Position numbers and translations under genes: made by a program. Below are positions 520 through 33,592 of a DNA stretch of 64,000 bases, one piece after another. This stretch comes from Candidatus Campbellbacteria bacterium. GTDB lineage: Bacteria > Patescibacteriota > Minisyncoccia > Phycocordibacterales > CSBR16-193. Within the stretch, counting starts at the first letter, position 1. Every line of letters starts with the position of its first letter. The notes beneath the pieces are model-generated. The model was not told the origin of the DNA. It did no database searches and saw only the letters and a list, made by a program, of their open reading frames with translations. The stretch spans positions 24,490-88,489 of the forward strand of contig SLDR01000010.1 in the NCBI GenBank assembly GCA_007125155.1. Reading direction: 5' to 3'.

Positions 520-812
520 TCTAAGTAGGGACCTTTGAGAAGCGAATCGCAAAAACGATTCAGTTGTTTAAAATGACCTAAAGCTGTTCGGAAAAGATGT
601 GATTACCTACGGGGAAAGCCGGACATACCGAGGATTCGATATATCTTCTAAAGCGCGCGGAAGATGAAGGTTACTACCTACGGGGAAAGCCGTCGGAAAC
701 AAAGATGTCATTTCCGAAAGTGGACACTCAAGGGTGTTCGGTTTATCTTAAATAACAAACTTTTCAAGGTCCTGAACAAAAGCCCCGCCGAGCGGGTCTT
801 TTGTTTTTAAAA
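520..812 (+). ncRNA. Candidate small non-coding RNA of unknown family, about 290 nt
   Basis: Bounded by the promoter at 487..519 and a hairpin plus T-tract at 781..812. Contains a 30-nt direct repeat (AAGATGnnnTTACCTACGGGGAAAGCCG at 594..622 and 661..692) and a local hairpin GAATCGCAAAAACGATTC at 543..560. No ORF of 60 aa or more with an RBS. Confidence 0.3.
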
Positions 813-850
813 CAAAAGACCCGTCTATTTTTTAAAGACGGGTCTTAAAA
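781..850. terminator. Convergent rho-independent terminators
   Basis: Hairpin CCCGC-CGA-GCGGG followed by TCTTTTGTTTTT on the + strand. An 11-bp hairpin AAGACCCGTCT/AGACGGGTCTT at 808..838 has a T-tract on the minus strand and serves the minus gene ending at 857. Confidence 0.55.
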
Positions 851-856
851 TGTGGA

Positions 857-1075
857 TCATAGTCCGATCTTGCTTTTGCTCAGCACCCTGAGAAGTGGGG
901 ACGAGACTTTCACATGTCTGGTTTTGACATGATCTAAAACCGTGATCGACTTGACCTTCAGACATATGTCAGGTCCGTGATCGATCTTTTCCAGATCAAC
1001 TACTCCCTCGATCGCGACGTCCTTAAAGTCTGTTTTTCCCCTGTTCGCCTCCTTGATGAAAACTTCAGCTTCCAT
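857..1075 (-). CDS. Hypothetical small protein (72 aa)
   Basis: ORF with GGAGGT RBS 6-8 nt upstream of the ATG (reverse complement of 1079..1089), and a terminator immediately downstream. No recognisable family. Confidence 0.5.
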   Translation of the reverse strand: MEAEVFIKEANRGKTDFKDVAIEGVVDLEKIDHGPDICLKVKSITVLDHVKTRHVKVSSPLLRVLSKSKIGL

Positions 1076-1302
1076 TATTACCTCCCATGAGTATTACTTT
1101 TTTATAAAGAACTTTATTGACGACTCGAAACATTAAAGCATGAAATAATAAATAAGTAAATAGCTTGAAAACATAGCGATCCGGGTCTTTTAGGGCCGAC
1201 TCCTTAAGGGCGATCGGATTGACAAATCGGCATCTATGATAAAGAATTCCAAAAGGTCTTGGAACAACAAACAACATTGATCTTTAAAAGGAGGTTTTTG
1301 AG

Positions 1303-1878
1303 GTGACAAAAAAAATGAGAGAACAGGATCTACTCGAAAGGCAGGTTGGACTTTTGAACATGTGCAAAGCAAACAGGGACCATGAAAGAAGGTCTTATGA
1401 AAAGGTATTAAGATCAGCCGATTCTCCCATTGAGTGCTTCTACGTGGCGTGTTCTTCATTCTGCGATCTTGATCTTAAGTGGCGAGCACTTGCGAAAGCG
1501 GAAAAAATGTTGGCCTATGAACTCGGTTCAAGAAAGGTCGCAGCTGAAGTAATGACGAGTTCATACATATCATTGATAGAGCAAGAGTTCAAGCGCATGC
1601 TTTTTTTTGAAAAGAGGATCCAAGAACTTGATGATATGCTTATTTCGGCAAAGTCTTTCGAAGAATGTTTGAGTGTATTCCTCAGATCCTTATTCGTTTT
1701 CGATAAATTCAAGAATCTCGAAATGGGGATGGCTTGTAGGGATCTGAGTATAAGAGCTCTTGGAAAAGCGAAAACTCATGTATTGAACAAAAAGCAAAGA
1801 CACCATCTCCGGGACTGTTTCAGATACTTTCGATATTTGACCGATGAGAATGCCGATGAAGCTGAAGTTTCTGAATAA
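1303..1878 (+). CDS. Hypothetical protein (191 aa, predicted all-alpha)
   Basis: AAAGGAGG RBS at about 1283..1290. Followed by a strong terminator. No recognisable motifs. Confidence 0.55.
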   Translation: MTKKMREQDLLERQVGLLNMCKANRDHERRSYEKVLRSADSPIECFYVACSSFCDLDLKWRALAKAEKMLAYELGSRKVAAEVMTSSYISLIEQEFKRMLFFEKRIQELDDMLISAKSFEECLSVFLRSLFVFDKFKNLEMGMACRDLSIRALGKAKTHVLNKKQRHHLRDCFRYFRYLTDENADEAEVSE

Positions 1879-1892
1879 TGATGTTCATTTCA

Positions 1893-1928
1893 ACCACCCG
1901 AATGTAAAAATTCGGGTGGTTTTTATTT
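1893..1928 (+). terminator. Rho-independent terminator
   Basis: CCACCCGAAT/ATTCGGGTGG 10-bp stem with GTAAAA loop, followed by TTTTTATTT. Confidence 0.7.
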
Positions 1929-1937
1929 GCCGTCGTC

Positions 1938-2954
1938 TTAAGAGAATCCCAAAAGGGCGGATATGAATATGACATAGAATAATACGTAAAAAGCCCCTTC
2001 CCACGAATTTATGTTCTTTGAGATGCCGGATAGCACAAAAAGGAATGTCGCTATCGCCAAAAAAGGCAGTCCGACCGAATATGTCTGATCATCAAGTTCG
2101 ACTCTGAAGAAAAGAGCCGGCAGGCCAACAACAACCATCATATTGAATGCGTTCGATCCAAAAATGTTACCTAGGGCCACATCAAAGCGTTTCATTAGCG
2201 CCGCCTTGATCGATACCAGAAGTTCAGGTAAAGAAGTTCCTATGGCAACGGCGGTTATGGTGATGGCCCCTACCCCCATCCCGAGGATCACAGACAGTGA
2301 TATGACCGAATCTACCAAATACTTGGAGCTAATTCCAAGTATGGCAACACCGATGACGAACATCATCATGTCATTGATCTTCAAACTCGGTCTTTCTACC
2401 GGTCTATTCTTATGACATTCCTTCATCGACAGATGGCTTGTGTGGTCTCTCCTGTCGGCCCTGGAGGGCAGTTTTTCGACTTCTTTGTTATTATTCTTGT
2501 CCCCGTCCTTGAAGGCGTAAAGGATGTATATTACATATACCAGGAGCATTATTATCGCTTCAAAAAAGGTTATTATGCCGTCCCAGGCAACTGCAAGAAA
2601 TATCGCGGTGCCGATGGCCAAAAGAGGAAGCTCGGTATTAATAAGACTTTTGGTAGCCACTAAACGTCCCGCCACCACGGCCGAGAATCCAACAACCAAA
2701 AGGATATTGGCCAGATTCGATCCAACGGCGTTCGCCGGCGCGAATTCTGTCAGACCCTTATAAGCCGCAAAGAACGAAGCGATCAATTCAGGGAATGAGG
2801 TTCCCAGACTTACTATGAGAACACCTACAATGAAGGGTGATAGGCCGATGGCTAAACCGATCTTCTCAGACCCCTTAAGAAGCCAGTCCGCGCCCTTGAC
2901 CAGTCCCAAGATCGAGATGAGAAAAATGATAGTCCATATAATAAGGGATTCCAT
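1938..2954 (-). CDS. Na+/Ca2+ exchanger, CaCA family (YrbG-like)
   Basis: Ten-TM protein with the two alpha-repeat signatures GTSFPEL and GTSLPEL that are typical of CaCA antiporters. Confidence 0.85.
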   Translation of the reverse strand: MESLIIWTIIFLISILGLVKGADWLLKGSEKIGLAIGLSPFIVGVLIVSLGTSFPELIASFFAAYKGLTEFAPANAVGSNLANILLVVGFSAVVAGRLVATKSLINTELPLLAIGTAIFLAVAWDGIITFFEAIIMLLVYVIYILYAFKDGDKNNNKEVEKLPSRADRRDHTSHLSMKECHKNRPVERPSLKINDMMMFVIGVAILGISSKYLVDSVISLSVILGMGVGAITITAVAIGTSLPELLVSIKAALMKRFDVALGNIFGSNAFNMMVVVGLPALFFRVELDDQTYSVGLPFLAIATFLFVLSGISKNINSWEGAFYVLFYVIFISALLGFS

Positions 2955-2966
2955 CTGTTCATTTTT

Positions 2967-4367
2967 TTACCCTTTCTTTTTCCTTTCGGTTTTTAGACCA
3001 AGTTCATTAAGTTGACCTTCCTCTATCTCCGACGGGATGTCCATCATAAGGTCCCTACCCTCTCCGGTCTTTGGAAAAGCTATCACTTCGCGGATACTTG
3101 ATTCTCCTTGAAGGACGGCAAGCAATCTATCCATTCCAACCGCTATCCCTCCGTGGGGAGGAACTCCGTAGCTGAAGGCGTCAAGCAAATGTGAGAATTC
3201 TTCTTGTTGCTTTTTGGAAAAACCGATCAGATCAAAAACGGTCTTTTGTACATCAGCTTCGTGAATACGAATGCTTCCACCGGCGATCTCAAATCCGTTA
3301 AGAGTAAGGTCAACTTGTTCGGAGATCACATCCTCCGGAGCGTCGGAAAGTTTTTTCAGGTCTTCTTTCCTTGGCGCTGTGAACATGTGGTGTTCAGGCA
3401 TCAAGTATCCAAGCTCACTTTTTTCTTTTTCAAAAAGCGGAAAGTCAACCACCCATGCGAAGCCGAGCTCGTTCGGATCATCGGGGTTTTTTCTTATATC
3501 AGGGCGATCGGAACCGTATTTCTCCATGATATCTTTGTGGTTCAAACGAGGCCAAGGGGTCTCGGTCATGTGTTTATTCGGGAAGAGTTCGGTTATCATC
3601 TTGGTGAACATCTCTTCCACGAGAGCCATTACATCCTCTCTGTCAATGAATGAGCATTCGATGTCAAGTTGAGTGAATTCCGGCTGTCGATCTCCTCTGG
3701 TGTCTTCATCCCTCATACAACGTGCGATCTGGAAGTACCTTTCAAATCCACCTATCATCAGAAGTTGTTTATACTGCTGAGGAGATTGAGGAAGTGCGTA
3801 GAATGACCCCCTGTAAATCCTTGAAGGTACGACATAGTCACGTGCCCCTTCAGGGGTCGAACGGGTCAAGATGGGTGTCTCTATTTCAATGAAGTCCTTT
3901 TTTATAAGAAAGTTCCTTGTAAAGTTGTTCACGGAAGATCTTGTTCTGATATTATCTTGAATGCGTTTCCTTCTGATATCCAGGTACCTGTATTTCATTC
4001 TTATCTCCTCATTTACCTCGTAGCCGTCCGTTGAAAGATCGAATGGCGGTGTGTCTGATTCGGAAATGATCTCCAATGAGGTCAGTTCCATTTCGATGTT
4101 ACCCAACGGTTCATCGGGATTGATCATTTTGTCCGGTCTGCTTTTGACTTCCCCTTCAGCGGACACTATCCACTCTGGGCGGACTTGATCGGCAAGGGAG
4201 TGAACGTTCTCAGGCTTAGGCAAGACCACAACCTGAACTTTTCCTGTCTCGTCCCTGATGTCCAAAAAGATAAGCTTTCCGTGGTCACGACGTATATCTA
4301 TCCTTCCCAGAAGTTTGACGGTGTCACCGATCTTTTCTTTTAGGTTCTTTATCTTGGTTCGTTTCAT
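2967..4367 (-). CDS. aspS: Aspartate--tRNA ligase, short form without GAD insertion
   Basis: Class II motifs: [35 protein letters not shown] (matches E. coli AspRS motif 2), and a C-terminal [10 protein letters not shown] motif 3. Length 466 aa. 4-nt overlap with pepA. Confidence 0.9.
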   Translation of the reverse strand: [466 protein letters not shown]

Positions 4368-5791
4368 GTTCCTTTTTTAATGTTATTTAAATAGTCCAGG
4401 AGAAGGATGATCGGGGCCCCCAATGATCCCTTAGCCAGATTATCGTGTTCTCCGGCTTCCATTCTCGGAGCAATGTCGATATGAGCCCATGAATCAGTAT
4501 ATTCCGTGAACTCTTTCAGGAAAGCGGCCGCACTACAGGCTCCGCCGTTCGGAGATTTTCTACTTGCGTTCACAAGGTCGGTGAATTCCCCTTTCATATC
4601 TTTACCGTATTCGTAACTCATCGGCATATGCCAAACTCTCTCGCCGGTCCTTTCTCCGGATCTTAAGAGCGCGTTCTTGAGGTCTTCGTTATCGGAGAAT
4701 AACGCGGAATATTTATCTCCCAAAGATACGACAGAGGCCCCGGTCAAGGTGGCTGTATCAATTACTGTCTTTGGCTTGAATCTCTTTAAATAATTTAATG
4801 CATCGGCCAATACAAGCCGTCCTTCGGCATCGGTATTTATCACTTCTACAGTTTTTCCGGACATCATGGTAAGTATATCTCCCGGCTTGTAGCTTGAGCC
4901 GGAAACAACATTTTCCACTGCGGGTATTACGGCCACGATATTGAGCTTCATTTTAAGTCTGGCTGCCGCTATGACGGTATGTATGACCGCGCCTCCTCCG
5001 CTCATATCCATATGCATTCCCAAGGAAGCTCCACCCGGTTTTAAGTTTATTCCTCCGGTATCGAAGGTTATACCTTTACCCGCCAGAGCAATGGGTTGCT
5101 CGTCGCTCTTTGTTCCGTTGTATTTCATAACTATCAGGTAAGGTCCATCATCAGAGCCTCTGCCAACACCCAATATTCCCTCCATTTTCAGGGAGGATAT
5201 CTTTTTTTTATCCAGTATCGTTACTTTGACTCCCGTATCTTTGGCTGCTTTTTTCACTTCTTTTACCAAGAAACTCGGTGAAAGCTCGGTCCCCGGGGTG
5301 TTGCACAAAAAACGCGCTTTGTTAATTTCTTCTCCCGCGATCACGCCCTTTTCGATACCGGCCCTGAAGTCTTTTGAGATATCCCCGAAGATCGTTAAAA
5401 AACTTATTCGTTTTTCCCTAGAATTCTTGTCGCTCTTTCGGTGATCAAAAGAAAAATCAGCCATAAGCGCATTGACTGCGAACAGAAAACCCGCATGTTG
5501 ATCATTGATATCCATCACACTGACGGAATGTTTTATGTCGTCGTATGATATGCCAATGTCCGTGACATGCGATTCCTTCGCCATCCTGAGCGCGCGGCGT
5601 AGCGTGTAGACGTATCTTTGAAGATCAAGATCCTTATTGGCCGGTATCTCAATGTTTAATTCCACTCTACCGTCCTCATACTCCTTAAGCCCGGTTTTGT
5701 TCTTTTCACTGAATATCAGCCTGACTATTCGCCGGGGAGCATTAGAGATCTGTTTTTTAGTGAATCTAATTTTCATACTTTTACTTATCAC
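4364..5791 (-). CDS. pepA: Leucyl aminopeptidase, M17 family
   Basis: NTDAEGRLVLADAL signature and a catalytic-domain pattern typical of the M17 family. The start codon choice among N-terminal Mets is uncertain. Confidence 0.9.
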   Translation of the reverse strand: MISKSMKIRFTKKQISNAPRRIVRLIFSEKNKTGLKEYEDGRVELNIEIPANKDLDLQRYVYTLRRALRMAKESHVTDIGISYDDIKHSVSVMDINDQHAGFLFAVNALMADFSFDHRKSDKNSREKRISFLTIFGDISKDFRAGIEKGVIAGEEINKARFLCNTPGTELSPSFLVKEVKKAAKDTGVKVTILDKKKISSLKMEGILGVGRGSDDGPYLIVMKYNGTKSDEQPIALAGKGITFDTGGINLKPGGASLGMHMDMSGGGAVIHTVIAAARLKMKLNIVAVIPAVENVVSGSSYKPGDILTMMSGKTVEVINTDAEGRLVLADALNYLKRFKPKTVIDTATLTGASVVSLGDKYSALFSDNEDLKNALLRSGERTGERVWHMPMSYEYGKDMKGEFTDLVNASRKSPNGGACSAAAFLKEFTEYTDSWAHIDIAPRMEAGEHDNLAKGSLGAPIILLLDYLNNIKKGT

Positions 5792-6777
5792 TCGGAAAAA
5801 AGTATTCCCATCGAACTTCTTACTTCCTTAATGGTCGATCTCGCTCTCTGCCCCGCTTTCCGGGCACCCTCACTCAATATCCTCTCGACCTCCTCGGGCT
5901 TCTTTTCATACTTTTGTCGTCTTTCCCTGAATGGTTGGGTATAAGCGCTCAGTTTTTCGGAGAGGAGGTCCTTGCTTTCCTTGTATCCAATTCCGCCTTT
6001 AATGTATCTCTCTTTTAATGAAGTTGTCTCTTTATGCGAGGCCACCAGAGAGTATAGCTTAAAGACGGAACAACTATCAGGGTCTTTGGGTTCGTCGACA
6101 CCCTTTGAATCCGTTGGGATCTTCATTACCGCTTGATTTATATCTTCCGGCTCTGCGAACAGAGATATCGTGTTACCGTAGCTTTTACTCATTTTTCTGC
6201 CGTCGGTACCCGGAATGGTGCCGACGGGCCCGAGTATGATCCCTTCCGGGACAGGAAAGACCTCTTTATAGGTTGAATTGAATTTTTCAGCCACATCTCG
6301 GGCATATTCTATATGCTGGCGTTGGTCCTCGCCGACCGGAACGAATTGCGCTTTGTGTATCAGTATATCGGCGGCCATTAGTATTGGGTAATCAAAGGTT
6401 CCGGCGTTCACTTCCTCCTTTTTGGACTGAGCGTCCTTATAAGCATGTGCCCTCATAAGGTAGGAGACATTGATGATACAGTTGAAATACCAGCAGAGCT
6501 CAGTCACTTCCGGTATATCGGATTGTTTATAAAAACATATTTTATCAGGGTCGATACCGGCACCAAGGCAATCGAGTGCCAGAGAGCGAGTGTTATCAAG
6601 AAATAAAGAAGCATCCTTAACGCTCGTCATTGCATGTAGGTCGGCAATAAAAAAAGTGCAGTGGTACTTATCTTTAAGTTCTATAACCTGCCTTATTGAG
6701 CCTAAGAAATTACCAAGATGCAAGTTTCCGGTGGGTTTCATTCCTGATACGAGTATCGGTTTAGTGTTCTTTTTCAT
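5788..6777 (-). CDS. trpS: Tryptophan--tRNA ligase
   Basis: Class I HIGH-type motif (TGNLHLGN) and KMSKS. The 329-aa length fits TrpRS. Confidence 0.9.
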   Translation of the reverse strand: MKKNTKPILVSGMKPTGNLHLGNFLGSIRQVIELKDKYHCTFFIADLHAMTSVKDASLFLDNTRSLALDCLGAGIDPDKICFYKQSDIPEVTELCWYFNCIINVSYLMRAHAYKDAQSKKEEVNAGTFDYPILMAADILIHKAQFVPVGEDQRQHIEYARDVAEKFNSTYKEVFPVPEGIILGPVGTIPGTDGRKMSKSYGNTISLFAEPEDINQAVMKIPTDSKGVDEPKDPDSCSVFKLYSLVASHKETTSLKERYIKGGIGYKESKDLLSEKLSAYTQPFRERRQKYEKKPEEVERILSEGARKAGQRARSTIKEVRSSMGILFSE

Positions 6778-6822
6778 GACTTGAATTTTTTTATTTCATA
6801 CTATCATAAAAGAAAAAAAAAC

Positions 6823-6852
6823 CGAATATCTCGGTTTTTTTTATGAATTGAT
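6823..6852. terminator. Bidirectional rho-independent terminator
   Basis: ACCGA-ATATC-TCGGT hairpin flanked by an A9 tract and a T8 tract, lying between dnaJ and trpS. Confidence 0.6.
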
Positions 6853-6899
6853 CTTTGGGTTTTATTGTCTTAGGCGAACATTGATATCCGCCCATCTAC

Positions 6900-7979
6900 T
6901 CATATCCCTTCATTTTTCAACTCCTCGATCGTCTTTCTTGCTCGTCTTGAGATCTTCTTCGGCATTGTTATTTTTATCGTAACCAACAGATCACCTCGTC
7001 CCGATCTGGAACCGGGAACCCCTTTTCCGCGAACTCTCAGGACCTCGTTGAACCCAATTCCGGCCGGGATCTTAATGTCAATCCTTCCGTCAAGGGTTTC
7101 GATGGTGTATGTGGATCCAAGAAGCGCATCGGAGAGCTTTATGTTCAGATCCATTCTGAGATCGTCTTTATCTCTCTGGAAGATCGGATGCTTTTTGACG
7201 TGAACTTTGGCGTAAAGGTCTCCTGTTACACCTCCGGGCACCGCTTCTCCCATTCCCGAAAGTCTTATCATCTCTCCGTCTTCGACACCGGCGGGTACGT
7301 TGATGTTTATCTCTTCCTCTTTCCTGTAAACACCTGTTCCTTGGCACTGCTTACACTTGACTTTCGGAACCTTACCTTTCCCGAAACAGACCCCGCAAAC
7401 TTTTTCTGTAGTGATCGTACCTAACAGCGACCGTCTTGATTCTCTGATCTTACCGCGACCGTTGCAAGTTGGACAGGTTACCGTGTCGCTTTCCTTCTCC
7501 GCCCCACTTCCTCCGCAAAGGTCACATGTCGAATTCTTTTGGATAAGTATTGAACGATTTGTTCCAAATATGGATTCCTCGAATGAAAGTTCTATATCTA
7601 TCGCAATATCCCTACCGCGTGAGGTCTGATCCCTTTTTCTTCCGAAGAAATCCCCGAATATATCTCCAATGTCGAAATCATCGAATCCCTGGGCCTCTTT
7701 GAATCCGCCAAATCCGGAAAAATCAAAACCCTCAAAACCGGATGCGTATTGATCGGCATTATTTCCCCCTCCGGAGAAAACTCGGCCATATGTATCATAC
7801 TCGGAACGTTTTTGGTCATTGGACAGGATCTGATAAGCCTCATTTATCTCTTTGAATTTTTCCTCGTCTCCGGATTTTTTATCAGGGTGGTATTTATGAG
7901 CAAGCTTTCGAAAGGCTTTCTTTATATCATCCTTGTTGGCACTTTTGTTGATCCCTAAAATTTGATAGTAATCCTTCAT
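6900..7979 (-). CDS. dnaJ: Chaperone DnaJ
   Basis: J-domain with HPD (KYHPDK), a G/F-rich linker, and four CxxCxGxG zinc-finger repeats. Confidence 0.95.
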   Translation of the reverse strand: MKDYYQILGINKSANKDDIKKAFRKLAHKYHPDKKSGDEEKFKEINEAYQILSNDQKRSEYDTYGRVFSGGGNNADQYASGFEGFDFSGFGGFKEAQGFDDFDIGDIFGDFFGRKRDQTSRGRDIAIDIELSFEESIFGTNRSILIQKNSTCDLCGGSGAEKESDTVTCPTCNGRGKIRESRRSLLGTITTEKVCGVCFGKGKVPKVKCKQCQGTGVYRKEEEININVPAGVEDGEMIRLSGMGEAVPGGVTGDLYAKVHVKKHPIFQRDKDDLRMDLNIKLSDALLGSTYTIETLDGRIDIKIPAGIGFNEVLRVRGKGVPGSRSGRGDLLVTIKITMPKKISRRARKTIEELKNEGI

Positions 7980-8051
7980 AAGTTCACAGTATATACTTCT
8001 TCAGCCCGCCATTCAACTTAAGCTTGATCGTGGCAGATCCGGATCAATTTA

Positions 8052-10001
8052 TTACTTTTTGTTCTCGCTGTCTTCATTGTCGTCCTCTTTCTTTTCTTCA
8101 TAAGTGGCGTCTCTTACCGTTTCATCTTTTTTGTTATCTTCATCCCCCGGCGCACCTTGCGTCTCAGGCTGATCCGTACTTTTATCACTTCCACTTTGTT
8201 CATATTGCCCCAGTTTTGAAGATTCTTCGGTCAAAGATCGGGTCGCGGATTGAATACCCGAAAGATCCTCGGATGTCTTTATTTTGTTCAGTTCGTCTAT
8301 TTTTTCCTTTACCTTTTTTTTGACATCCTCAGGTATGTTGTCCCCTTTATCAGTGATCATTTTTTCCGCCTGATAGATCGCCTGGTCCGCCGTGTTACGA
8401 GTTTCAGCCAACTGCTTCTTTATTTCATCCTCCTTTTTATGTTCTTCCGCTTCTTTTCTCATCTTTTCTATCTCATCATCGCTGAGTCCCGTGCTGGCCT
8501 CTATCCTTATGGATTGGGCTTTGTCCGTCTTCTTGTCCTTGGCCGTTACATTCAGGATACCGTCTTTGTTGATGTCGAAGATAACTTCTATCTGAGGGAT
8601 ACCGCGTGGAGCCGGTTCTATACCGTCGAGTATGAATCTTCCAAGACTTTTATTGTCGGCCGCCATCGGTCTTTCGCCTTGCAATACGTTAATTTCAACC
8701 GAAGTCTGTCCGTCAACGGCGGTTGAGAATGTCTGTGATTGGGATGCGGGTATTGCGGTGTTCCTCTCTATCAGTTTAGTGGCAACTCCCCCCATTGTTT
8801 CAATTCCCAAGGACAGGGGTATAACATCGAGAAGTAGTACATCTTTGACCTCTCCCGAAAGAACCCCCGCCTGAATGGCCGCTCCGAGTGCGACGACCTC
8901 GTCGGGATTGATACTCTTGTTTGCCTCTTTGCCGAAATATTCCTTTACTCTTTCTTGTATTTTAGGCATCCTTGTTTGTCCTCCGACCAGTATGATCTCA
9001 TCTATCTCGTTCACTGAGAAAGGAGATGCCGCGATGGCCCTTTCGGTTATCTCCATGGCTCGGTCGATATACTCCTGCGCCAAGTTCTCGAGTGTTGCTC
9101 TTGTAAGTGTTATCAGGAGATGTTTGGGCCCTTCTTCATCGGAAGTAATAAAAGGAATGTTTATCTCCGTTTCAGTGGTGGTGGAGAGTTCATGTTTGGC
9201 CTTTTCTGCGGCTTCGTCAAGCCTTTGGAGCGCCAGTGCATCACCACGCACGTCAATGCCTGATTCTTTCTTGTACTCGTCAGCTATCCAGTTGATTATT
9301 TTTTGATCGATATCTCTCCCGCCCATATGGCTGTCGCCGTCTGTTGATTTCACTTCCACCGTTGACTCATCGTCATCATCTCCCACCTCCAGGACAGAGA
9401 TGTCGAATGTTCCCCCGCCGAAATCAAAAACCACCAATTTTTCGTTCTTCTTTTTGTTGAATCCATATGCCAGCGCAGCGGCAGTCGGTTCGTTTATGAT
9501 GCGCTTTACATCAAGTCCGGCGATCTTACCTGCGGCTTTGGTGGCTTTACGTTGGTCGTCATTGAAGTAGGCGGGAACCGTTATCACCGCTTCGCTTATT
9601 GTTTCTTTGAGTTTACTCTCCGCGTCACTTTTGAGTTTTTGCAGTATCATGCTGGATAATTCTTCGGTCCTGTACCACTTATCACCCATTTTGATCTCCA
9701 CTCCTCCTTTTTCAGATTTTCTCATCTCGAAGGAAACGTTCTCTTTGTCTCTTTGTACCGCCTCATCTTCGAAGTTGTGCCCAACAAGTCTCTTCATTCC
9801 GTAAACCGTGTTTTGAGGATTTGTTACAGCCTGCCTTTTTGCCAGAAGCCCGACAAGCCGGTCTCCTTTTTTAGATATGGCCACTATGGAAGGTGTTGTT
9901 CTGTTGCCTTCCGAGTTCTCGATTATACGGGGCTCGTTACCTTCCATTATTGCCACCGCAGAGTTTGTAGTACCAAGATCTATTCCAATTATTTTTCCCA
10001 T
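8052..10001 (-). CDS. dnaK: Chaperone DnaK (Hsp70)
   Basis: [18 protein letters not shown] and the typical Hsp70 architecture, with an acidic C-terminal tail. Confidence 0.97.
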
Positions 10002-10042
10002 ATTATTATATTAATGTTTTAATTATATGAATAAAAATATGA

Positions 10043-10693
10043 CTAATTTTCTTTTGCCGACACTTCATCTTCGTTATCGTTCAGATACTCTCCAACCCTC
10101 ACCTTGGCACAGCGAAGGAGTTGGTCCCGTATCATGTATCCATCCTGAATTACCTCAACAATGATGTTGTCTTTACTTTTGTCTTCCACCTTAACGGTTC
10201 CGACCGCTTCGTGTAAGCAGGGATCGAAATTTTGATCTATCGGGGAGAATGAATATATACCTTTATCATTAAGGATCTTTATAAGCTGGTTTAGTACGTT
10301 CTCCATCCCCTCCTTCCATTCCTTCGGTAGTTCTTCCCAATTACCGCTATTGGCGGTTGCCATTTTAAAACTGTCCAAAACCGGCAATATACTCTCTGCA
10401 AACTTTCTTTCAGACCTTTCTCCGGCTTCCCGGGCCTCTTTTTCGTATCTTCTTCTTATGTTGACGAGGTCGCTTTTAGCTTTTTGCCACCCATCCAAAT
10501 ATTCCGCTTTTTCATTACGGCACTTTTTAAGTTCTATTTTAAGTTTATGCAATTTATCTTTAGATCCACCTTCTTCCTCTTCGATCGCATCGGGCTCCTC
10601 TTCGAAAGTGACGTCATTCTTTTCATACTCTTCGCCATTGATGGATACTTTTTTTTCAAGGTCTTTCTTTTTGTTTCTATTGTCCGCCTTCAT
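10043..10693 (-). CDS. grpE: Nucleotide exchange factor GrpE
   Basis: WQKAKSDLVNIRRRYEKE coiled-coil region and a C-terminal FDPxLHEA motif. Sits upstream of dnaK in the classical order. Confidence 0.9.
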   Translation of the reverse strand: MKADNRNKKKDLEKKVSINGEEYEKNDVTFEEEPDAIEEEEGGSKDKLHKLKIELKKCRNEKAEYLDGWQKAKSDLVNIRRRYEKEAREAGERSERKFAESILPVLDSFKMATANSGNWEELPKEWKEGMENVLNQLIKILNDKGIYSFSPIDQNFDPCLHEAVGTVKVEDKSKDNIIVEVIQDGYMIRDQLLRCAKVRVGEYLNDNEDEVSAKEN

Positions 10694-27935: not shown

Positions 27936-29300
27936 TCAGACAGGGAGATCTGAGGGAGCGTCACCTTTCCTTGAAGTCACTCTCTGCAGTGTCGGGGTTG
28001 CCGATGATTCACCCGGGATGTGGAATATTGTCGCTAATTCCTCGGTACTCATTACTCCGTGTGGAGATTTGTAGGGAGGATAGAAATAGGATCTCCATCT
28101 GTAAGCGTTATACATCTGCTTCGAGACCCTCTTTTTCCTGAACCCTTTGTAATCCTGCCATGGGTAGTCGAAAACGGTATGTCCTCTTGTGGGTGCGAAT
28201 CCATTCATGTGTTCATAGTTGTATTGTTTGAATACGCTGACCAAACCGCTTATTGTGATAGGGTCAAAAGAGTCTTTCTCGGATATATACAAGGATCTTA
28301 TACCTACATCAAATGCTCTTTTGCTAAGGTTTCTTTCTATGGCTTTTATCGTCTCCGCCTGCCAAGTGGTCAGATTTATGGATGGAGCCCCCTCGGGAAC
28401 TTCGTCTATTCTGAGCGAAAGCTTGGGGGGCGCATTGTCCTTAATGATCTTTTGTATTATTTTTTGTCCTTCGTCCTTCCAATCAACCTTTCCGAAAAAA
28501 GAACCGGGTTTTTTCTTTTCCTTTTTATGTGCTCTTACAAGTATCTGTATCCACACAGCCTCTCCTCTGTTCAATGATGCCAAAAACTCAAGAACGGAGT
28601 TCATCGGATCGACGATGTATTCTTCTTTTATCTCTCTGTCCAATCCGTAGTCGATATATGTTCTAATCGGATAAGGGTCAGGCTTGGTGAGCTTGTATTC
28701 GCATGCCCAAAAATTGTATTTTTCCAGATCGAAAGGAATGTAATCGGTATAGTCTTCGACCTCGTAGACCTCGGCATCGGGGTATTGGGAATATATTGCC
28801 GCCTCTATGTGCCTCCTCCAGTTCTTCCGCATCCATATAAAGAAGTGGATCCTCCCTTCAAGAGATACCATTTCCAGTGAGAACCACGGACGTGTCTTCC
28901 CCTTTATCCAACGATCGATGAAAGTTCCTTCTCCCCCTGTCTGATGAAATGCTTCCAACAGAAGTTCCATGGCTATAAGGGGCTTTTTGGTGTCTTTTGG
29001 AACCTTTACCTCCATCAGTATCGTCTCTTGATCCATGAAAAAAGAGATCCGCTTATATGCCATGTAGGTATTTATGGCCGCCATGGTAAAGATCACGGGC
29101 AAAAAGATCAGAAGGACACCCAGCAACACTCTGAGAAAGATCTCTATGTTCCCGCCAGTTAGCCCGATGAGCAACAGAAGGCCGATGATCGAAAAAAAAG
29201 GCATCAAACCGACCATTACGTATATGGCGATTAGAACCTTTCTGTCCTGATCTTTCTTCTGTTCCTCTTCCGACGGAGGTGAGATCGATGTTTCCGGCAT
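27936..29300 (-). CDS. Hypothetical membrane protein (454 aa; 2 N-terminal TM helices plus a large soluble domain)
   Basis: Two hydrophobic helices followed by a soluble domain with a C-terminal MSTEELATIFHIPG motif. No Walker motifs. Family not recognised. Confidence 0.55.
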   Translation of the reverse strand: MPETSISPPSEEEQKKDQDRKVLIAIYVMVGLMPFFSIIGLLLLIGLTGGNIEIFLRVLLGVLLIFLPVIFTMAAINTYMAYKRISFFMDQETILMEVKVPKDTKKPLIAMELLLEAFHQTGGEGTFIDRWIKGKTRPWFSLEMVSLEGRIHFFIWMRKNWRRHIEAAIYSQYPDAEVYEVEDYTDYIPFDLEKYNFWACEYKLTKPDPYPIRTYIDYGLDREIKEEYIVDPMNSVLEFLASLNRGEAVWIQILVRAHKKEKKKPGSFFGKVDWKDEGQKIIQKIIKDNAPPKLSLRIDEVPEGAPSINLTTWQAETIKAIERNLSKRAFDVGIRSLYISEKDSFDPITISGLVSVFKQYNYEHMNGFAPTRGHTVFDYPWQDYKGFRKKRVSKQMYNAYRWRSYFYPPYKSPHGVMSTEELATIFHIPGESSATPTLQRVTSRKGDAPSDLPV

Positions 29301-29308
29301 ACTTGCCC

Positions 29309-30349
29309 TTATTCTACCACATGATAGAGGCCGTCTTCATCCTTTACAAAATGATTCGGATTTTGAAGGTTTACAAGTATGGTGTTCTCTCTGACGAATC
29401 TCTCCTTAAGAACCTCCTTTATTATCTCGTCTGCGGGAAGAGGGCCCTTTTGCTTTAGTATCCTTTTTATAACATCCCTGACAACTCCGCCCGTATATCC
29501 CCATTCCTTTAGAGCGTAGAGTCCTCGGCCTACCAGTACGAATCGGGGATCCTTTATGAGTTCGTTATGGGTAGTGGCAACATGGGCCTTCTTATTGAAA
29601 ATCTCTTCTATAGTTTTGGCGACCTCTCGGAAATGGATCGGTCTCCCTTGTTTTCTTAATACCAAAAATGCGTAATCCCGCATTCCTTTGGTGTTTATAT
29701 TTTTAGAATCTGCCTTCCCCCATTCTCCCAGAGGATTTTTTGATATTTTTTTAGATATTGAAAGCCATCTCCTGGCGATCTCTTCCTTTTTATAATCATC
29801 CGATACGTCCTCGAGGTATCTGAGAAATCTTTTTATCATGTCCGGTTCGGAGACCAATTCTTCATTGGACAGACTTTGGTAGAGCTTATGGAGGGATTCG
29901 TGTATCTTGCTCGAGAGGTCGGGATCAACGTGCCAACGATGTTTAAAAAGGTCGTCTTCTTTTTCTTTGTTGAAGTAATCGTCCAGATAAAGAAGAAACT
30001 GAAAGTGATTCCTGGTCTCCTTATCATCTGAAAGATAAGAGAGGAGATCCTCTTCGGATACGACAGCCCCCAGACCTTTGATTATGTCGTGTAGCTCATC
30101 AAAAACATGCGAGTATTTTTTGTATTCTTTGGATGATTTGATGGTTGATATGGAGTGTTTTTCGATCTGTCGAACACGCTCTCGAGTTATTCCATACTTC
30201 TTGCCTATAGCCTCAAGTGTTCTTTTTTCAGTATTTTTACCGAGACCATGACGTTCCGTTATTATTTCTTTGCCTCGGTCGGAAAGGGATTGCAATAAAG
30301 CTTTATTGACTTGTTTAGGTTTAAAGGTAACTATTGCGGTTTTTGGCAT
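29309..30349 (-). CDS. Putative transcription regulator: sigma-70 region-4 HTH plus C-terminal HARE-HTH domain
   Basis: N-terminal LEAIGKKYGITRERVRQIEKHSI is a sigma-70 region-4 HTH. The C-terminal MRDYAFLVLRKQGRPIHFREVAKTIEEI...GRGLYAL is a HARE-HTH. The start is ambiguous between ATG 30349 and TTG 30400. Confidence 0.55.
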   Translation of the reverse strand: MPKTAIVTFKPKQVNKALLQSLSDRGKEIITERHGLGKNTEKRTLEAIGKKYGITRERVRQIEKHSISTIKSSKEYKKYSHVFDELHDIIKGLGAVVSEEDLLSYLSDDKETRNHFQFLLYLDDYFNKEKEDDLFKHRWHVDPDLSSKIHESLHKLYQSLSNEELVSEPDMIKRFLRYLEDVSDDYKKEEIARRWLSISKKISKNPLGEWGKADSKNINTKGMRDYAFLVLRKQGRPIHFREVAKTIEEIFNKKAHVATTHNELIKDPRFVLVGRGLYALKEWGYTGGVVRDVIKRILKQKGPLPADEIIKEVLKERFVRENTILVNLQNPNHFVKDEDGLYHVVE

Positions 30350-30449
30350 TTTGATTTTTATATGAATAAACTTGACCTCTTTTATTATTTTTTTATTCAA
30401 ACGTGCTAGGATTTATACCATATATAAAAATATTTTTCAAACATTTTCT

Positions 30450-33353
30450 TCACAATACGATGTTGATTATTCGGTTGGGAACATAAATGATTTTATTAAT
30501 TCTCTTATTTCCGCACCATTTTGAAAATACGGATGTCCTTTCCAGCTCCTTTATCGCTTCCTCCTTCGATGAATCCCTTGCTATCTCCATCTCGCCTCTT
30601 TTTTTGCCATTGATCTGTATCGCCACCTTTGTGCTCTCGTCCAAGGTCTTTTCGGGGTCATATGCGGGCCACTTGGATCTATGGATCGACGTCCTTTGAC
30701 CGAGGCCTTCCCAAAGCTCATCGGCAATATGCGGAGCGAAAGGAGCAAGCAAGGTAAGAATATCCCTCAGGTCTTTTTTTGATATTTTTTCTTTCGAATC
30801 CATGTGTTTTACAAGTATCATCAAAGAGGACACGGCCGTGTTGAACGAGAAGGACGATATGTCGTCCCCCACCTTCTTGATGGTCTTGTGTATGATGGAT
30901 TCCGTATCCCTATCCCTTATTTGGGAGGGGGATACCTTACCGGGAAGACGCCAGACCCGCTCCAGGAATCTGCGTGTCCCCATCAACCCGTTGATGCTCC
31001 ATGACACCTCTCCTTCAAAGGGCCCCATGAACATTTCATATAGACGCATAGAGTCGGCCCCGACATCGTTCACGACCTTATCCGGACTTATGACGTTGCC
31101 CCACCTCTTGCTCATTTTTCTTCCATCCGGACCGAGGATCAATCCCTGGTTCCTCAGTGCCTTAAAGGGCTCCTTCGTGGTTACGACCCCTTCTTTGTAC
31201 AGGAATTTATGCCAGAATCGAGAGTATATGAGGTGGCGTGTGGCGTGTTCTATCCCACCGACGTATAGATCCACCGGCATCCAATATTTTTCCTTATTGG
31301 GATGAACGGGGTATTTTTTGTTCTTGGGATCGATGTAACGAAGATAGTACCAGCATGATCCCGCCCATTGAGGCATGGTATTGGTTTCTCGTTTTGCGTT
31401 CTCATTACATTTGGGACATTTAGTTTTCACCCACGAGGTTATGTTGGCAAGGGGCGATTCCCCCGTTCCCGTGGGTTCATATGACCTTACTTCCGGAAGC
31501 CTGATCGGCAGTTCGTCTTCCGGGACCGGTACCACTCCGCATTTTTTGCAATGTATAAGAGGAATCGGTTCACCCCAGTATCTCTGTCTTGAAAAAACCC
31601 AGTCTTTAAGTTTGTACTTGGTCCTTATTTTTCCCCCGACTTTGTTATTGATGGACCTCTTGGCCACTTCGTTATCCATGCCCGAGAACTCGCCTGAATT
31701 ATCCAAGACCCCGGAGCCGGTGTATGCCATGTTGTCCCCTTTTTTCAGCCATTCAGTCCATATGTCCAGCTCGGCACATGTCATCAAATCAACCGTTTCA
31801 TCGAGTTTACCCCACATAATTTCATGTTTTTCATTTTCCTCCGGTGCGATCTTTTTACGCTTGTGGCTCTTTAGTTCAAGGTGGACCGCAGTAGTTAATG
31901 CTTTTCTGTTCTCATTCTTATGAGCCGCATAGTAGTGTGCCTCCACATAAAAAGGGGTGATTTTTTTGAATCCAAGATCAAAGTATCCTGTCTCCTCTTC
32001 CACTTCTCGCTTTGCCGCTTCGATAATGTCTTCATTTTCTCCCACTCCTCCGACAACAAATGTTATCCATTTGTGTTTCTTCCATCTCAAGAAAAGTGTC
32101 TTTCCCGAATCGGGGTCAGTGACTATGACATGGACCGTCTTTCTTTCGATCGTTCTTTTCTTCTCTTTGGGCGGATTACGTTCATCGATCCTTTTCGGAA
32201 AGACCACATATCGTATCGGGAGGTCCTTTTCTTTTGCGAAAGCATGATCTCGATCATCATGAGCGGGTACCGCCATGATGGCTCCCGTGCCGTAGTGCAT
32301 CATCACGTAATCGGCAACCCAAACCGGTATACTCTCGCCGTTGGCGGGATTCTTGGCCAATATGCCTTTGACCTCCACCCCTGTTTTCTTTTTTTCCTCG
32401 GTCGTTCTTTGCAGTTCGGTCTTCTTTGTCGCTTTTTTGATGTAGTTCCTGACTGCGGTCTTATTATCTATCGATGACCACATTTCTCCTATTATGGGAT
32501 GCTCGGGGGCGACCACCAGGTATGTTGCACCGAAGAGAGTATCGGGTCTTGTGGTAAATACCGATATGGAATACTCGGTATTATTTTCCGGAGCCGTTTT
32601 AGATCTTTCTCCGACCGGAGTCAGAAGAAAATCGATCTCGGATCCCTTACTTTTTCCTATCCAGTTCCTTTGTGAATCCTTTACGGATTCGGGCCAGTCG
32701 GAAAGACCATCGAGGTCATTCAATAACTCTTCGGCGTAGTCGGTTATCCTCAATACCCATTGGCGAAAAGGTCTCTGTTCGACCTCTGAACCACACCTTT
32801 CACAAAGACCTCCCTCAAGGTCCTCGTTTGCCAGACCCGTCTTGCAAGAAGGACACCAGTTTATGGGTTCATGTGATTCATATGCCAGACCGGCTTTGAA
32901 TATCCGTAAAAATATCCACTGCGTCCATTTATAATACTCGGGATCGGTCGTATTTATCTCTCTATCCCAGTCATAGGAGAGCCCCAGCTTCGATAGCTGT
33001 TTTCTGTAACGCCCAACATTCTTTTTAACCGCGGTTTTGGGATGTATCTTATTTTTAATGGCGAAGTTCTCGGCTGGCAGACCAAATGCGTCCCAACCCA
33101 TGGGGTGGAGTACATTGAACCCCTTCATCCTAAGATATCTGGAGTAGATGTCGGTTGCAATATAACCGCGAGGGTGGCCGACATGTATCCCTTCTCCCGA
33201 TGGATAAGGAAACATATCCAGAATATATTTTTTCTCTTTTCCTCCGGTGTGTTTTACGCGATAGAGTTTGTCTTTTTCCCAGCGTTTCTGCCATTTCCTT
33301 TCGATTCTGTTGTGGTCGTACTTTTTCATGGATCTCTGCTTTCGCTCTGTCAT
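30450..33353 (-). CDS. leuS: Leucine--tRNA ligase carrying an internal Nudix-hydrolase-like domain insertion
   Basis: HIGH-type HVGHPRGY, editing-region TTRPDT, and KMSKRWGN. Residues about 385-540 insert RWKKHKWITFVVGGVGENEDIIEAAKREVEEETGY, an exact match to the Nudix box Gx5Ex7REUxEExGU, at the position of the leucyl-specific domain. Confidence 0.9.
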   Translation of the reverse strand: MTERKQRSMKKYDHNRIERKWQKRWEKDKLYRVKHTGGKEKKYILDMFPYPSGEGIHVGHPRGYIATDIYSRYLRMKGFNVLHPMGWDAFGLPAENFAIKNKIHPKTAVKKNVGRYRKQLSKLGLSYDWDREINTTDPEYYKWTQWIFLRIFKAGLAYESHEPINWCPSCKTGLANEDLEGGLCERCGSEVEQRPFRQWVLRITDYAEELLNDLDGLSDWPESVKDSQRNWIGKSKGSEIDFLLTPVGERSKTAPENNTEYSISVFTTRPDTLFGATYLVVAPEHPIIGEMWSSIDNKTAVRNYIKKATKKTELQRTTEEKKKTGVEVKGILAKNPANGESIPVWVADYVMMHYGTGAIMAVPAHDDRDHAFAKEKDLPIRYVVFPKRIDERNPPKEKKRTIERKTVHVIVTDPDSGKTLFLRWKKHKWITFVVGGVGENEDIIEAAKREVEEETGYFDLGFKKITPFYVEAHYYAAHKNENRKALTTAVHLELKSHKRKKIAPEENEKHEIMWGKLDETVDLMTCAELDIWTEWLKKGDNMAYTGSGVLDNSGEFSGMDNEVAKRSINNKVGGKIRTKYKLKDWVFSRQRYWGEPIPLIHCKKCGVVPVPEDELPIRLPEVRSYEPTGTGESPLANITSWVKTKCPKCNENAKRETNTMPQWAGSCWYYLRYIDPKNKKYPVHPNKEKYWMPVDLYVGGIEHATRHLIYSRFWHKFLYKEGVVTTKEPFKALRNQGLILGPDGRKMSKRWGNVISPDKVVNDVGADSMRLYEMFMGPFEGEVSWSINGLMGTRRFLERVWRLPGKVSPSQIRDRDTESIIHKTIKKVGDDISSFSFNTAVSSLMILVKHMDSKEKISKKDLRDILTLLAPFAPHIADELWEGLGQRTSIHRSKWPAYDPEKTLDESTKVAIQINGKKRGEMEIARDSSKEEAIKELERTSVFSKWCGNKRINKIIYVPNRIINIVL

Positions 33354-33592
33354 TTATGTTAAACACTATACATCAATAAAGGACCTATTGGCAAACCCGG
33401 TCATTTTCACGATCATCCCGAATGTGCCACACCGGCAACGTTGCGTGTTCATTGTCGGTCAAGTTCGTTGTAGGACCTTGCTTTCGGACATTTAAGATGC
33501 GTACCGCCGTCTCCATTTTTTAGGGTCCCTTCCAGTCTGATGCACGGATCAGATGCCGGTGGACCGTTCTGAACCGCCAGGATCCCAAGGGG

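Follow-up and report, generated by a model that had tools for sequence, protein, structure and literature searches.

The leuS locus and its product

The stretch of DNA analyzed here (the window; 64,000 nucleotides from Candidatus Campbellbacteria bacterium) carries on its minus strand a gene for a leucyl-tRNA synthetase (LeuRS) that holds a Nudix domain in frame. The features of this gene are given below, where Tth denotes residues of the Thermus thermophilus LeuRS (1h3n; E = 3.6e-216 in the alignment with the query).

30450..33353, minus strand: leuS open reading frame, 967 aa, single and uninterrupted; stop codon at 30450..30452; first 8 codons probably untranslated
32670..33329, minus strand: class I catalytic (Rossmann) domain, N-terminal half, aa 9-228; PF00133 at aa 20-233; aligns with Tth 1-223
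33174..33185, minus strand: HIGH motif as HVGH, aa 57-60, within the N-terminal Rossmann half
32202..32669, minus strand: CP1 editing domain, part 1, aa 229-384; PF13603 at aa 229-397, profile positions 1-152 of 185
32538..32555, minus strand: threonine-rich editing motif TTRPDT, aa 267-272, in CP1 part 1
32247..32264, minus strand: AHDDRD (AHDxRD editing motif), aa 364-369, in CP1 part 1
31731..32201, minus strand: inserted Nudix module, aa 385-541, ~157 aa, a complete autonomous domain with the N-terminal arm xP-x-x-ID-x-x-NPP...VER
31983..32051, minus strand: Nudix box (GX5EX7REUXEEXGU), aa 435-457, read directly from the sequence as GGVGENEDIIEAAKREVEEETGY
31905..31928, minus strand: family-specific motif A-x-H-K-x-x-N-R, aa 476-483, downstream of the aromatic pair Y474 and Y475 at +17/+18 after the box (X-loop region)
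31593..31730, minus strand: CP1 editing domain, part 2, aa 542-587, within the stretch aligned with Tth 375-579
31116..31133, minus strand: site of the missing leucine-specific domain (Tth 580-636), aa 741-746; in the alignment, Tth 579 and 637 are separated by ~4 query residues
31104..31118, minus strand: KMSKR (KMSKS-type loop), aa 746-750, directly after the site of the missing leucine-specific domain
30558..30914, minus strand: anticodon-binding helical domain, aa 814-932; PF08264, 78.7 bits; C-terminal part aligned with Tth 637-875
30453..30557, minus strand: C-terminal tRNA-binding domain, aa 933-967, after the anticodon-binding domain, from the alignment to Tth 637-875

Because the identical database protein (P0001) is 959 residues long and homologues begin MKKY(D/N)H, the real start codon of leuS is probably M9 (33329). 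In an NCBIfam search, the product scored 998 bits on TIGR00396 (leuS_bact; cut-off, 548.4), the match being divided in two by the insert. Both class I signatures, HIGH and KMSKS, are present as HVGH and KMSKR in columns conserved among 90 homologues; the N-terminal Rossmann half also holds the ZN-1 cysteine cluster, and its H, G, and Cys columns are invariant in the same set. The query shares with canonical LeuRS (T. thermophilus 1h3n/2byt and Escherichia coli 4aq7) the domain order, the HIGH motif, ZN-1, CP1, the KMSKS-type loop, and the anticodon-binding and C-terminal domains. It departs from them at two points: a 157-residue Nudix domain stands where the T. thermophilus enzyme has a 12-residue loop (363-374), and the leucine-specific domain of the T. 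thermophilus and E. coli enzymes (Tth 580-636) is absent. As judged from the sequence, the gene product is a predicted fully functional bacterial-type LeuRS with intact aminoacylation and editing sites. A promoter-like TTGCCA-N18-TATAGT lies upstream of the leuS open reading frame, but sites of this kind were found in the region about as often as expected by chance (6 versus 5.4).

Position of the insert in the synthetase

Query residues 9-384 align with Tth 1-362 and residues 542-741 with Tth 375-579. By this alignment, the Nudix insert replaces Tth 363-374, which form a variable loop on the protein surface in the late part of the CP1 editing domain. The CP1 editing profile PF13603 scored 191.7 bits, with the match split by the insert, and the TTRPDT and AHDDRD motifs align with T. 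thermophilus T247/T248/T252 and D344/D347. The corresponding query positions (T259, T260, R261, T264, D358, and D361, numbered from M9) were invariant in 90 sequences. CP1 part 2 is followed immediately by SRQRYWG (aa 588-594), the C-terminal beta-linker motif at which the chain returns to the catalytic core. The first-pass annotation had placed the insert at the position of the leucine-specific domain and had described the CP1/editing region as shortened. Both statements are ruled out by the 1h3n alignment and the Pfam matches: the insert lies in a CP1 loop, the leucine-specific domain is deleted separately at aa 741-746, and the editing domain retains its profile score, its two motifs, and its three invariant threonines and two invariant aspartates.

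The same short spacing at the leucine-specific domain site was found in 118/118 homologues. This domain is neither universal nor defining for the bacterial LeuRS family, and the LeuRS chains of Mycoplasma mobile and Agrobacterium align contiguously across the site.

The Nudix module

Alignment with the LeuRS of T. thermophilus, together with end-to-end alignment with free-standing homologues, set the boundaries of the insert at aa 385-541. Pfam NUDIX (PF00293) matched aa 404-523 at 40.3 bits (E = 3.9e-10; gathering score, 21.1), and the excised insert segment by itself scored 44.6 bits. AlphaFold2 modeled the module alone with a pLDDT of 95.7; in the full-length model (mean pLDDT, 88.1; pTM, 0.80), the module reached ~90 and its two linkers 87-90. 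The predicted fold is the Nudix alpha/beta/alpha sandwich. In these models, the insert is a self-contained Nudix domain predicted to fold independently. The first-pass annotation had reported a continuous 967-aa reading frame, a Nudix-like insert at about aa 385-540, and a perfect Nudix box at 31983..32051, and had proposed a profile search and a structure prediction as checks; the frame is a single one, the box lies at exactly those positions, the insert limits shifted only to aa 385-541, the profile match is significant, and the predicted structure is a Nudix fold.

GGVGENEDIIEAAKREVEEETGY is the sole Nudix box in the window. Across 90 homologues, its residues G435, E450, E454, and G456 were kept in 90/90 sequences, E441 and R449 in 89/90, and E453 in 88/90, compared with a mean column identity of ~35% over the module as a whole. 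As the box residues are retained in 88-90/90 sequences while the module overall is so divergent, we predict that the domain is catalytically competent, and the alignment indicates strong purifying selection on its putative metal-binding and catalytic residues. The motif downstream of the box is nearly as constant (K479 and R483, 90/90; N482, 89/90; H478, 83/90). Position 474, at +17 after the box, is aromatic throughout the 90 homologues (Y, 64; F, 26) and is Y in the query. The X-loop of Nudix enzymes determines substrate specificity (PMC5389931), and an X-loop tyrosine about 16-18 residues past the box correlates with ApnA hydrolase activity, a correlation only, as reported by Dunn et al. 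(1999) and relayed in PMC5389931.

Similarity to characterized Nudix subfamilies is low (15-25% identity; TM-scores, 0.6-0.7). Among PDB profile matches, the lupin Ap4A hydrolase ranked first (E = 1.3e-7), with the decapping enzyme AvrM14 next, and the top Foldseek matches were RppH and Ap4A hydrolases. With this group (E. coli RppH, the lupin and human Ap4A hydrolases, Chlamydia CT771, and T. thermophilus Ndx1), the module shares the Nudix fold, a complete box, and an aromatic residue about 17 positions after it; it differs in its own invariant A-x-H-K-x-x-N-R motif and N-terminal NPP...VER arm, in the 15-25% identity, and in being nested in another enzyme, whereas members of the group are free-standing. 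The best structural match was the Enterococcus faecalis MutT/nudix protein 2azw, which gave a full-length profile alignment and has a similar Y-F-x-x-x-H-R/K after the box; 2azw is 16% identical to the module and, unlike it, is a free-standing Firmicute protein, a structural-genomics entry without an assigned function. Among the NCBIfam equivalog models, none came near its cut-off for the module, the RppH models NF001937 and NF001938 scoring 15.5-18.9 bits against cut-offs of 116-139. Ap4A-type substrates would be compatible with the module's nearest structural and profile neighbors. Other cues from similarity and gene neighborhood are mixed: likeness to RppH and AvrM14 points to RNA 5' ends, and the adjacency of Fpg to free-standing relatives points to 8-oxo-GTP.

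Distribution of the module

PF00293 was found in 120/120 of the closest LeuRS homologues, all from Patescibacteria metagenome-assembled genomes; a survey of related synthetases for the same insertion was among the checks that the first-pass annotation had proposed. The insert occupies the same CP1 site in 117/119 homologues, and the other two carry a Nudix domain at a second site. Some homologous LeuRSs have two or three Nudix modules; in the second-type modules at the alternative site, the box is degenerate: Q replaces its first E, and R gives way to A, M, or T. Sister LeuRSs add Ham1/ITPase, serine-hydrolase, HAD, or DUF559 domains. Among the matches listed for species-representative genomes, a sample and not a census, 30/33 of the closest loci were embedded in LeuRS. 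The module family as a whole gave 301 matches among 1.84 billion representatives, mostly LeuRS. By sequence, this is a small family centered on aminoacyl-tRNA synthetases (aaRSs), and in our taxonomic survey, itself a sample, the Nudix insertion extends lineage-wide among the LeuRSs of Patescibacteria.

Prolyl-tRNA synthetase (ProRS) likewise carries an insertion of this module. Five free-standing Patescibacteria Nudix proteins (P0135, P0136, P0149, L020 2951-3433, and L028 3893-4438) align end to end with the insert at 29-40% identity and share its N-terminal arm, Nudix box, and AHKxxNR motif; these are separate genes of 160-185 aa annotated as generic NUDIX/MutT, whereas the insert is nested in LeuRS. 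The gene for P0135 lies 2 bp upstream of a syntenic leuS, another free-standing paralogue lies two genes upstream of proS, and another lies between argS and ileS. Among 11 paralogues analyzed, aaRS genes adjoined the free-standing copy in 3/9 informative contexts, a modest enrichment. Free-standing copies also neighbor genes for Fpg, dUTPase, thymidylate kinase, PRPP synthetase, and a PRK-family kinase.

Comparable fusions occur elsewhere among synthetases. An isoleucyl-tRNA synthetase (IleRS) with a histidine-phosphatase domain is another Patescibacterial example. IleRS with a GNAT N-acetyltransferase (NF040702, ileS_w_GNAT, among the NCBIfam matches) is likewise a class Ia aaRS with an extra small-molecule enzyme domain; LeuRS-Nudix differs from it in both host enzyme and guest fold. 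No curated model for LeuRS-Nudix was found in NCBIfam.

Proposed function and alternatives

We favor, at roughly even chances, a reading in which an autonomous Nudix pyrophosphohydrolase of ~157 aa, predicted to be active, is nested in a CP1 loop of LeuRS and serves nucleotide house-cleaning rather than a step of aminoacylation or editing. The domain would be an active Mg2+-dependent hydrolase acting on a nucleoside-polyphosphate compound, the likeliest substrates being Ap4A-type dinucleoside polyphosphates, which aaRSs themselves make, or aberrant NTPs. A house-cleaning or nucleotide-recycling activity would thereby be physically attached to an essential aaRS, and expressed along with it, in a very small cell that depends on salvage. 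The Nudix domain would probably take no part in aminoacylation or editing, and the CP1 loop may be a permissive docking site. We counted in favor of the house-cleaning theme the Ham1/ITPase, HAD, and serine-hydrolase domains of sister LeuRSs and the nucleotide-related neighbors of the free-standing copies. Counted against a role outside the synthetase mechanism is the retention of a Nudix domain in every LeuRS of the clade despite the change of site, along with the adjacency to aaRS genes, which could equally mean coupling to aaRS chemistry. The low similarity to characterized Nudix subfamilies, the lack of an assigned function for 2azw, and the mixed neighborhood cues also weigh against the favored reading.

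One form of such coupling, a built-in control of alarmones or by-products in LeuRS and ProRS that destroys Ap4A/Ap3A or adducts formed by attack of ATP or ADP on Leu-AMP, seems to us unlikely. In its favor, cellular Ap4A originates mainly from aaRSs, several Ap4A/ApnA hydrolases are among the nearest characterized relatives, the X-loop residue is aromatic, all 120 LeuRSs have at least one Nudix domain whatever the site, and the module occurs in ProRS and as free-standing copies near leuS, proS, argS, and ileS. However, LeuRS is not known as a strong Ap4A producer, and the module sits in the editing domain rather than beside the synthetic site. Its two insertion sites in different lineages argue against precise geometric coupling, the other guest domains (Ham1, HAD, serine hydrolase, and DUF559) have no Ap4A link, and 6/9 informative free-standing contexts had no aaRS nearby. 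Hydrolysis of the aminoacyl-adenylate itself was set aside as a Nudix function: Leu-AMP, an acyl-phosphate, contains only one phosphate and does not chemically resemble the Nudix substrate class. That the host binds RNA would suit an RppH-like RNA 5'-end pyrophosphohydrolase or decapping enzyme acting on 5'-triphosphate or Np4N/NAD-capped RNA, possibly LeuRS-bound tRNA-Leu or its precursors. We regard this as distinctly improbable, given RppH scores of 15-19 bits against NCBIfam cut-offs of 116-139 and the 5' monophosphate that mature tRNA carries after RNase P processing.

A module with no enzymatic role (structural, ligand-sensing, or tRNA-binding) might replace the lost leucine-specific domain or exert allosteric control of editing. 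The leucine-specific domain is indeed missing in all members, the degenerate boxes at the alternative site mean that noncatalytic Nudix copies do occur in these LeuRSs, and the high confidence with which the linkers were modeled suggests rigid docking on CP1. Against this stands the 98-100% conservation of the catalytic residues in the query's module type, which would be surprising in a purely structural module; the free-standing paralogues retain the same box, and other bacterial LeuRSs without a leucine-specific domain (M. mobile and Agrobacterium) have no Nudix domain. We give a nonenzymatic module little credence. An artifact or mobile element (misassembly, frameshift fusion, or a spliced-out intein) has a negligible probability. 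The only observation on its side was the endonuclease-like, unrelated DUF559 domain inserted in one relative. The open reading frame is continuous, the identical protein occurs on contigs of the NCBI, ENA, and Logan assemblies, and >100 sequence clusters (50-75% identity) share the architecture. An intein is disfavored by the end-to-end alignment of the insert with Nudix proteins that stand alone; no Hint/intein family was among the Pfam matches of the leuS protein, and neither a compositional break nor flanking repeats were found. Assembly error, frame error, and intein were ruled out on these grounds. The core first-pass reading of an in-frame Nudix domain in LeuRS thus withstood its assembly and frame-error test, with several independent assemblies and >100 homologous clusters in agreement.

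Beyond the favored house-cleaning reading, we put forward with considerable reserve, as a doubtful broader proposal, that Patescibacterial aaRSs serve as scaffolds recruiting small nucleotide-phosphohydrolase domains, with the CP1 Nudix acting in cis on nucleotide by-products of aminoacyl-adenylate chemistry (Ap4A-type alarmones) or on bound RNA. If so, these domains would be accessory domains of aaRSs belonging to a functional class not recognized before, one that connects translation with nucleotide signaling or sanitation in ultra-small cells.

Significance and annotation

Accessory domains of aaRSs are a classic route to new functions. Here an intact, predicted active enzyme is nested in the proofreading domain (CP1) of a bacterial LeuRS and conserved across a major uncultured lineage. 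No published description of a LeuRS-Nudix fusion was found in the literature searched, in agreement with the first-pass remark that the fusion appeared undescribed; LeuRSs of this architecture from many Patescibacteria genomes already stand in public databases without comment. If the Nudix domain is active, it would offer a tractable handle, one that can be purified, on nucleotide-pool policing in genome-reduced, salvage-dependent Patescibacteria and on whether dinucleoside polyphosphates made by aaRSs are destroyed at their source. It would also make the tolerance of the CP1 fold for domain insertion approachable, which would be useful in engineering. There is a consequence for annotation as well: public databases name these Nudix-bearing proteins as plain leucine--tRNA ligase or "class I tRNA ligase family protein," and one is misnamed after its guest domain.

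A Nudix module nested in leucyl-tRNA synthetase

The leuS gene and its downstream neighbors in the window comprise the following features:
27936..29300 (-), DUF8128 protein, beyond the Sigma70_r4 protein (both within 27936..30400)
29309..30400 (-), 3' neighbor of leuS, 363 aa, matching Sigma70_r4 and, weakly, HARE-HTH
30450..33353 (-), leuS, a single unbroken ORF of 967 codons
31116..31133 (-), gap in LeuRS at aa 741-746, where the leucine-specific domain is missing
31983..32051 (within leuS), Nudix box GGVGENEDIIEAAKREVEEETGY, aa 435-457
33329..33353 (-), first eight ORF codons, MTERKQRS, probably untranslated

The leuS ORF, described in the first-pass annotation as continuous through an in-frame insert, is indeed unbroken over its 967 aa and scored 998 bits against TIGR00396 (cut-off 548), the model for bacterial-type leucyl-tRNA synthetase (LeuRS). 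Pfam domains tRNA-synt_1, Anticodon_1, and the LeuRS editing domain (PF13603) were detected alongside NUDIX (PF00293). The HIGH and KMSK motifs and the editing motifs TTRPDT and AHDxRD were all present, and the catalytic residues of the editing domain (CP1) did not vary across 90 aligned homologues; as judged from these motifs and residues, both the synthetic and editing sites are intact. The true start is probably M9 (nt 33329): P0001, an identical protein in the databases, is 959 residues long and opens with MKKYDHN at M9, and MKKY(D/N)H is the start shared by homologues. For a promoter-like TTGCCA-N18-TATAGT at 33394..33365 (-), the frequency here was no higher than in shuffled sequence.

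In a Pfam search of the whole protein, PF00293 matched aa 404-523 with 40.3 bits (E 3.9e-10), above its gathering score of 21.1, confirming the Nudix match proposed for this ORF; the excised insert segment alone reached 44.6 bits. The Nudix box lies exactly where it was first placed and is the only one in the 64-kb window. Free-standing proteins of 160 to 185 aa from Patescibacteria align end to end with aa 385-541, from the N-terminal arm (..ID..NPP....VER) through to the C-terminal helices, and for two of them (L020, 2951-3433; L028, 3893-4438) the contig confirmed a gene of its own. AlphaFold2 modeled the module alone, from a 45-sequence alignment, with a pLDDT of 95.7 and pTM of 0.88, and the full-length LeuRS with 88.1 and 0.80, respectively (module and both linkers, ∼87 to 94). 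The expectation that the insert would fold as a Nudix domain is borne out by this predicted structure, for which Foldseek ranked Nudix enzymes at the top: RppH, Chlamydia CT771, and the human, worm, and Aquifex Ap4A hydrolases. Together, sequence and model show the nested Nudix fold to be complete and autonomous, with conserved catalytic residues. None of the NCBIfam equivalog models scored near its cut-off against the module, which therefore falls outside every characterized subfamily.

The module occupies a CP1 loop

The window LeuRS aligned to that of Thermus thermophilus (Tth; 1h3n) in three blocks: query 9-384 to Tth 1-362, 542-741 to 375-579, and 746-966 to 637-875. Residues 385-541 thus stand in place of a short loop, Tth 363-374, ∼15 residues past the catalytic aspartate of CP1. 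From established structural work we take CP1 to span Tth 224-417, enclosing this loop. The E. coli and Neisseria LeuRS chains also break in alignment at the insert point. The leucine-specific domain (Tth 580-636) is present in the T. thermophilus and E. coli enzymes but wholly absent from the window LeuRS, ∼200 residues beyond the insert, and the short spacing at its site recurred in 118/118 homologues checked. The first-pass annotation, correct in its core observation, was therefore wrong in two points of anatomy: the insert does not sit at the leucine-specific domain, and CP1 is not shortened, PF13603 matching with 191.7 bits and merely being split in two by the insert.

The architecture is clade-wide

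PF00293 was found in 120/120 of the best LeuRS homologues. The source-named members were MAGs of Patescibacteria, Paceibacterota, Parcubacteria, or Vogelbacteria, with one exception labeled Nanoarchaeia. A survey of related genomes for the same insertion had been proposed; the segment from AHD to SRQRYWG carried an extra ∼157 residues at this late-CP1 site in 117 of 119 classifiable proteins, and in the other two the Nudix modules occupied the N-terminal hinge of CP1, a second insertion site. By profile count, 105 proteins have one module, at the late-CP1 site, and 6 have one at each site; 5 have two at the hinge and one late, 2 have a pair confined to the hinge, and 2 had no site assignment. 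When 1.84 billion representatives were searched exhaustively by HMMER using just the module (E ≤ 0.001), only 301 proteins matched, and among the 150 best of these about two thirds were LeuRS or its fragments. Among species-representative genomes, at least 33 close loci were detected, 30 of the 33 listed being embedded in LeuRS. Genome labels among the matches listed were Patescibacteria, Berkelbacteria, Adlerbacteria, Moraniibacteriota, Paceibacterota, Minisyncoccia, and Saccharibacteria. The window corresponds to contig SKMP01000011.1 of assembly GCA_007120995.1. The LeuRS-Nudix architecture is clade-wide, and this distribution shows the feature to be real, old, and lineage-wide; the continuous ORF and the homologues across the lineage rule out an assembly or frame error. 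We detected no break in base composition across the insert and no meaningful repeats flanking it, and the probability of an artefact or an intein is negligible.

Many of the "Saccharibacteria" labels among the matches listed may be generic. Two contigs from MAGs labeled as uncultured Gammaproteobacteria (L003 and L035) match the Patescibacteria-type module: the 2.6-kb L003 encodes LeuRS-Nudix at 47% identity, probably through binning contamination or mislabeling, and L035 has a weak module match (29% identity) without LeuRS flanks.

Related modules in ProRS and as free-standing genes

The same module occurs in an archaeal-type ProRS, inserted after the anticodon-binding domain and before the C-terminal domain. 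Two archaeal-type ProRS genes encoding 643 aa each (L060, 2906-4837; L063, 2762-4693) have a Nudix at this position and lie near a PRPP synthetase gene, and the Nudix of the L060 protein (P0199) belongs to the family of the window module. Free-standing P0136 lies two genes upstream of ProRS-Nudix (L063), and P0135 (163 aa) is separated by 2 bp from a Nudix-bearing leuS downstream of it. The 53-kb contig that encodes P0135 (JGI sample 3300071358) is syntenic with the window, its leuS likewise being followed by the Sigma70_r4/HARE-HTH and DUF8128 genes. P0180 is situated between argS and an ileS carrying a histidine-phosphatase insertion (L066). Aminoacyl-tRNA synthetase (aaRS) genes adjoined free-standing copies in 3 of 9 informative contexts, more than the chance expectation of roughly 10% per context, in a small sample. 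Another copy, P0149, follows an Fpg/MutM DNA glycosylase gene at a distance of 4 bp (L061, 4016-5513; L062, 110-1607), an adjacency suggestive of a MutT-like (8-oxo-guanine) function in at least part of the family. One more adjoins a PRK-family kinase gene; neighbors of the remaining copies were not informative.

The L066 cluster (1-10498) interleaves aaRS and nucleotide phosphohydrolase genes: thymidylate kinase, zeta-toxin-like kinase, Nudix, dUTPase, ArgRS, Nudix (P0180), IleRS (1184 aa with inserted His_Phos_1), and Nudix.

Candidate functions of the module

Across 90 LeuRS homologues, the Nudix-box residues G435 (90/90), E441 (89/90), R449 (89/90), E450 (90/90), E453 (88/90), E454 (90/90), and G456 (90/90) were conserved, against a mean column identity of only ∼35% for the whole module, a pattern pointing to selection on catalytic function; that the module serves instead as a structural element or sensor without catalysis is quite improbable. 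K479 and R483 of a family-specific motif, A-x-H-K-x-x-N-R (aa 476-483), were invariant, and residue +17 after the box was aromatic in 90/90 (Y 64, F 26). Tyrosine in this region, the Nudix X-loop, correlates with ApnA hydrolase activity (PMC5389931).

The module may thus be an active pyrophosphohydrolase, most likely on dinucleoside polyphosphates or aberrant NTPs, judging from its nearest relatives, from the aromatic residue in the X-loop, from house-cleaning domains co-inserted in sister LeuRSs, and from the nucleotide-salvage neighbors; the CP1 loop would be a permissive docking site with no part in a joint mechanism. We regard this reading as about evenly balanced between right and wrong. 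Every LeuRS of the set strictly keeps at least one Nudix and the module's distribution is centered on aaRSs, both of which favor a functional link with aaRS chemistry in which Ap4A would be broken down at its place of synthesis; we nonetheless consider such a link unlikely. In a family-profile search of PDB sequences, the best match was lupin Ap4A hydrolase (E 1.3e-7) and the runner-up, over nearly the whole domain, the decapping effector AvrM14; RppH-like action on RNA 5' ends seems rather improbable. Hydrolysis of dinucleoside polyphosphates or aberrant NTPs is the reading we prefer.

Novelty and other guest domains

LeuRS and Nudix are each well-known families, and extra domains on aaRSs are a known phenomenon; IleRS with a GNAT domain is likewise such a case and has its own NCBIfam model. 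The suggestion that this fusion was undescribed held up: full-text searches of the literature on LeuRS or aaRS with Nudix and CPR/Patescibacteria yielded no description of it, and the Nudix clan review (PMC5389931) mentions no tRNA synthetase fusion. Source annotations read plainly leucine--tRNA ligase, except that one Ham1-bearing relative, P0003, takes its NCBI name ("non-canonical purine NTP pyrophosphatase") from the guest domain, though it is a LeuRS.

Patescibacteria LeuRSs with two or three Nudix modules also occur (P0010, P0011, P0013, P0018, P0032, P0042, and P0072); their additional copies lie at the N-terminal CP1 hinge, flanked by RLLxDLD and WPESIKxSQRNWIG. In the second hinge module (KHWSEDKY type) the box is degenerate, Q replacing its first E and either A, M, or T its R, and this module therefore may be inactive. 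Other guests occupy other permissive sites: Ham1/ITPase (P0003/P0008/P0009), alpha/beta serine hydrolase (P0020/P0022/P0072/P0076/P0081), and endonuclease-like DUF559 (P0029) early in CP1, between NWIG and TTRPDT, and HAD_2 (P0018/P0082) within the second zinc knuckle. A further ∼135-aa insertion (…KLSLNFY…ETRALNPEEK…GLIAWEIEP…), without a Pfam match, follows the first zinc knuckle of P0036, P0077, and P0103, between SRQRYWG and TMPQWAGS. P0250 (393 aa) fuses Ser_hydrolase to Nudix without LeuRS sequence; these two LeuRS guests are thus also joined to each other on their own.
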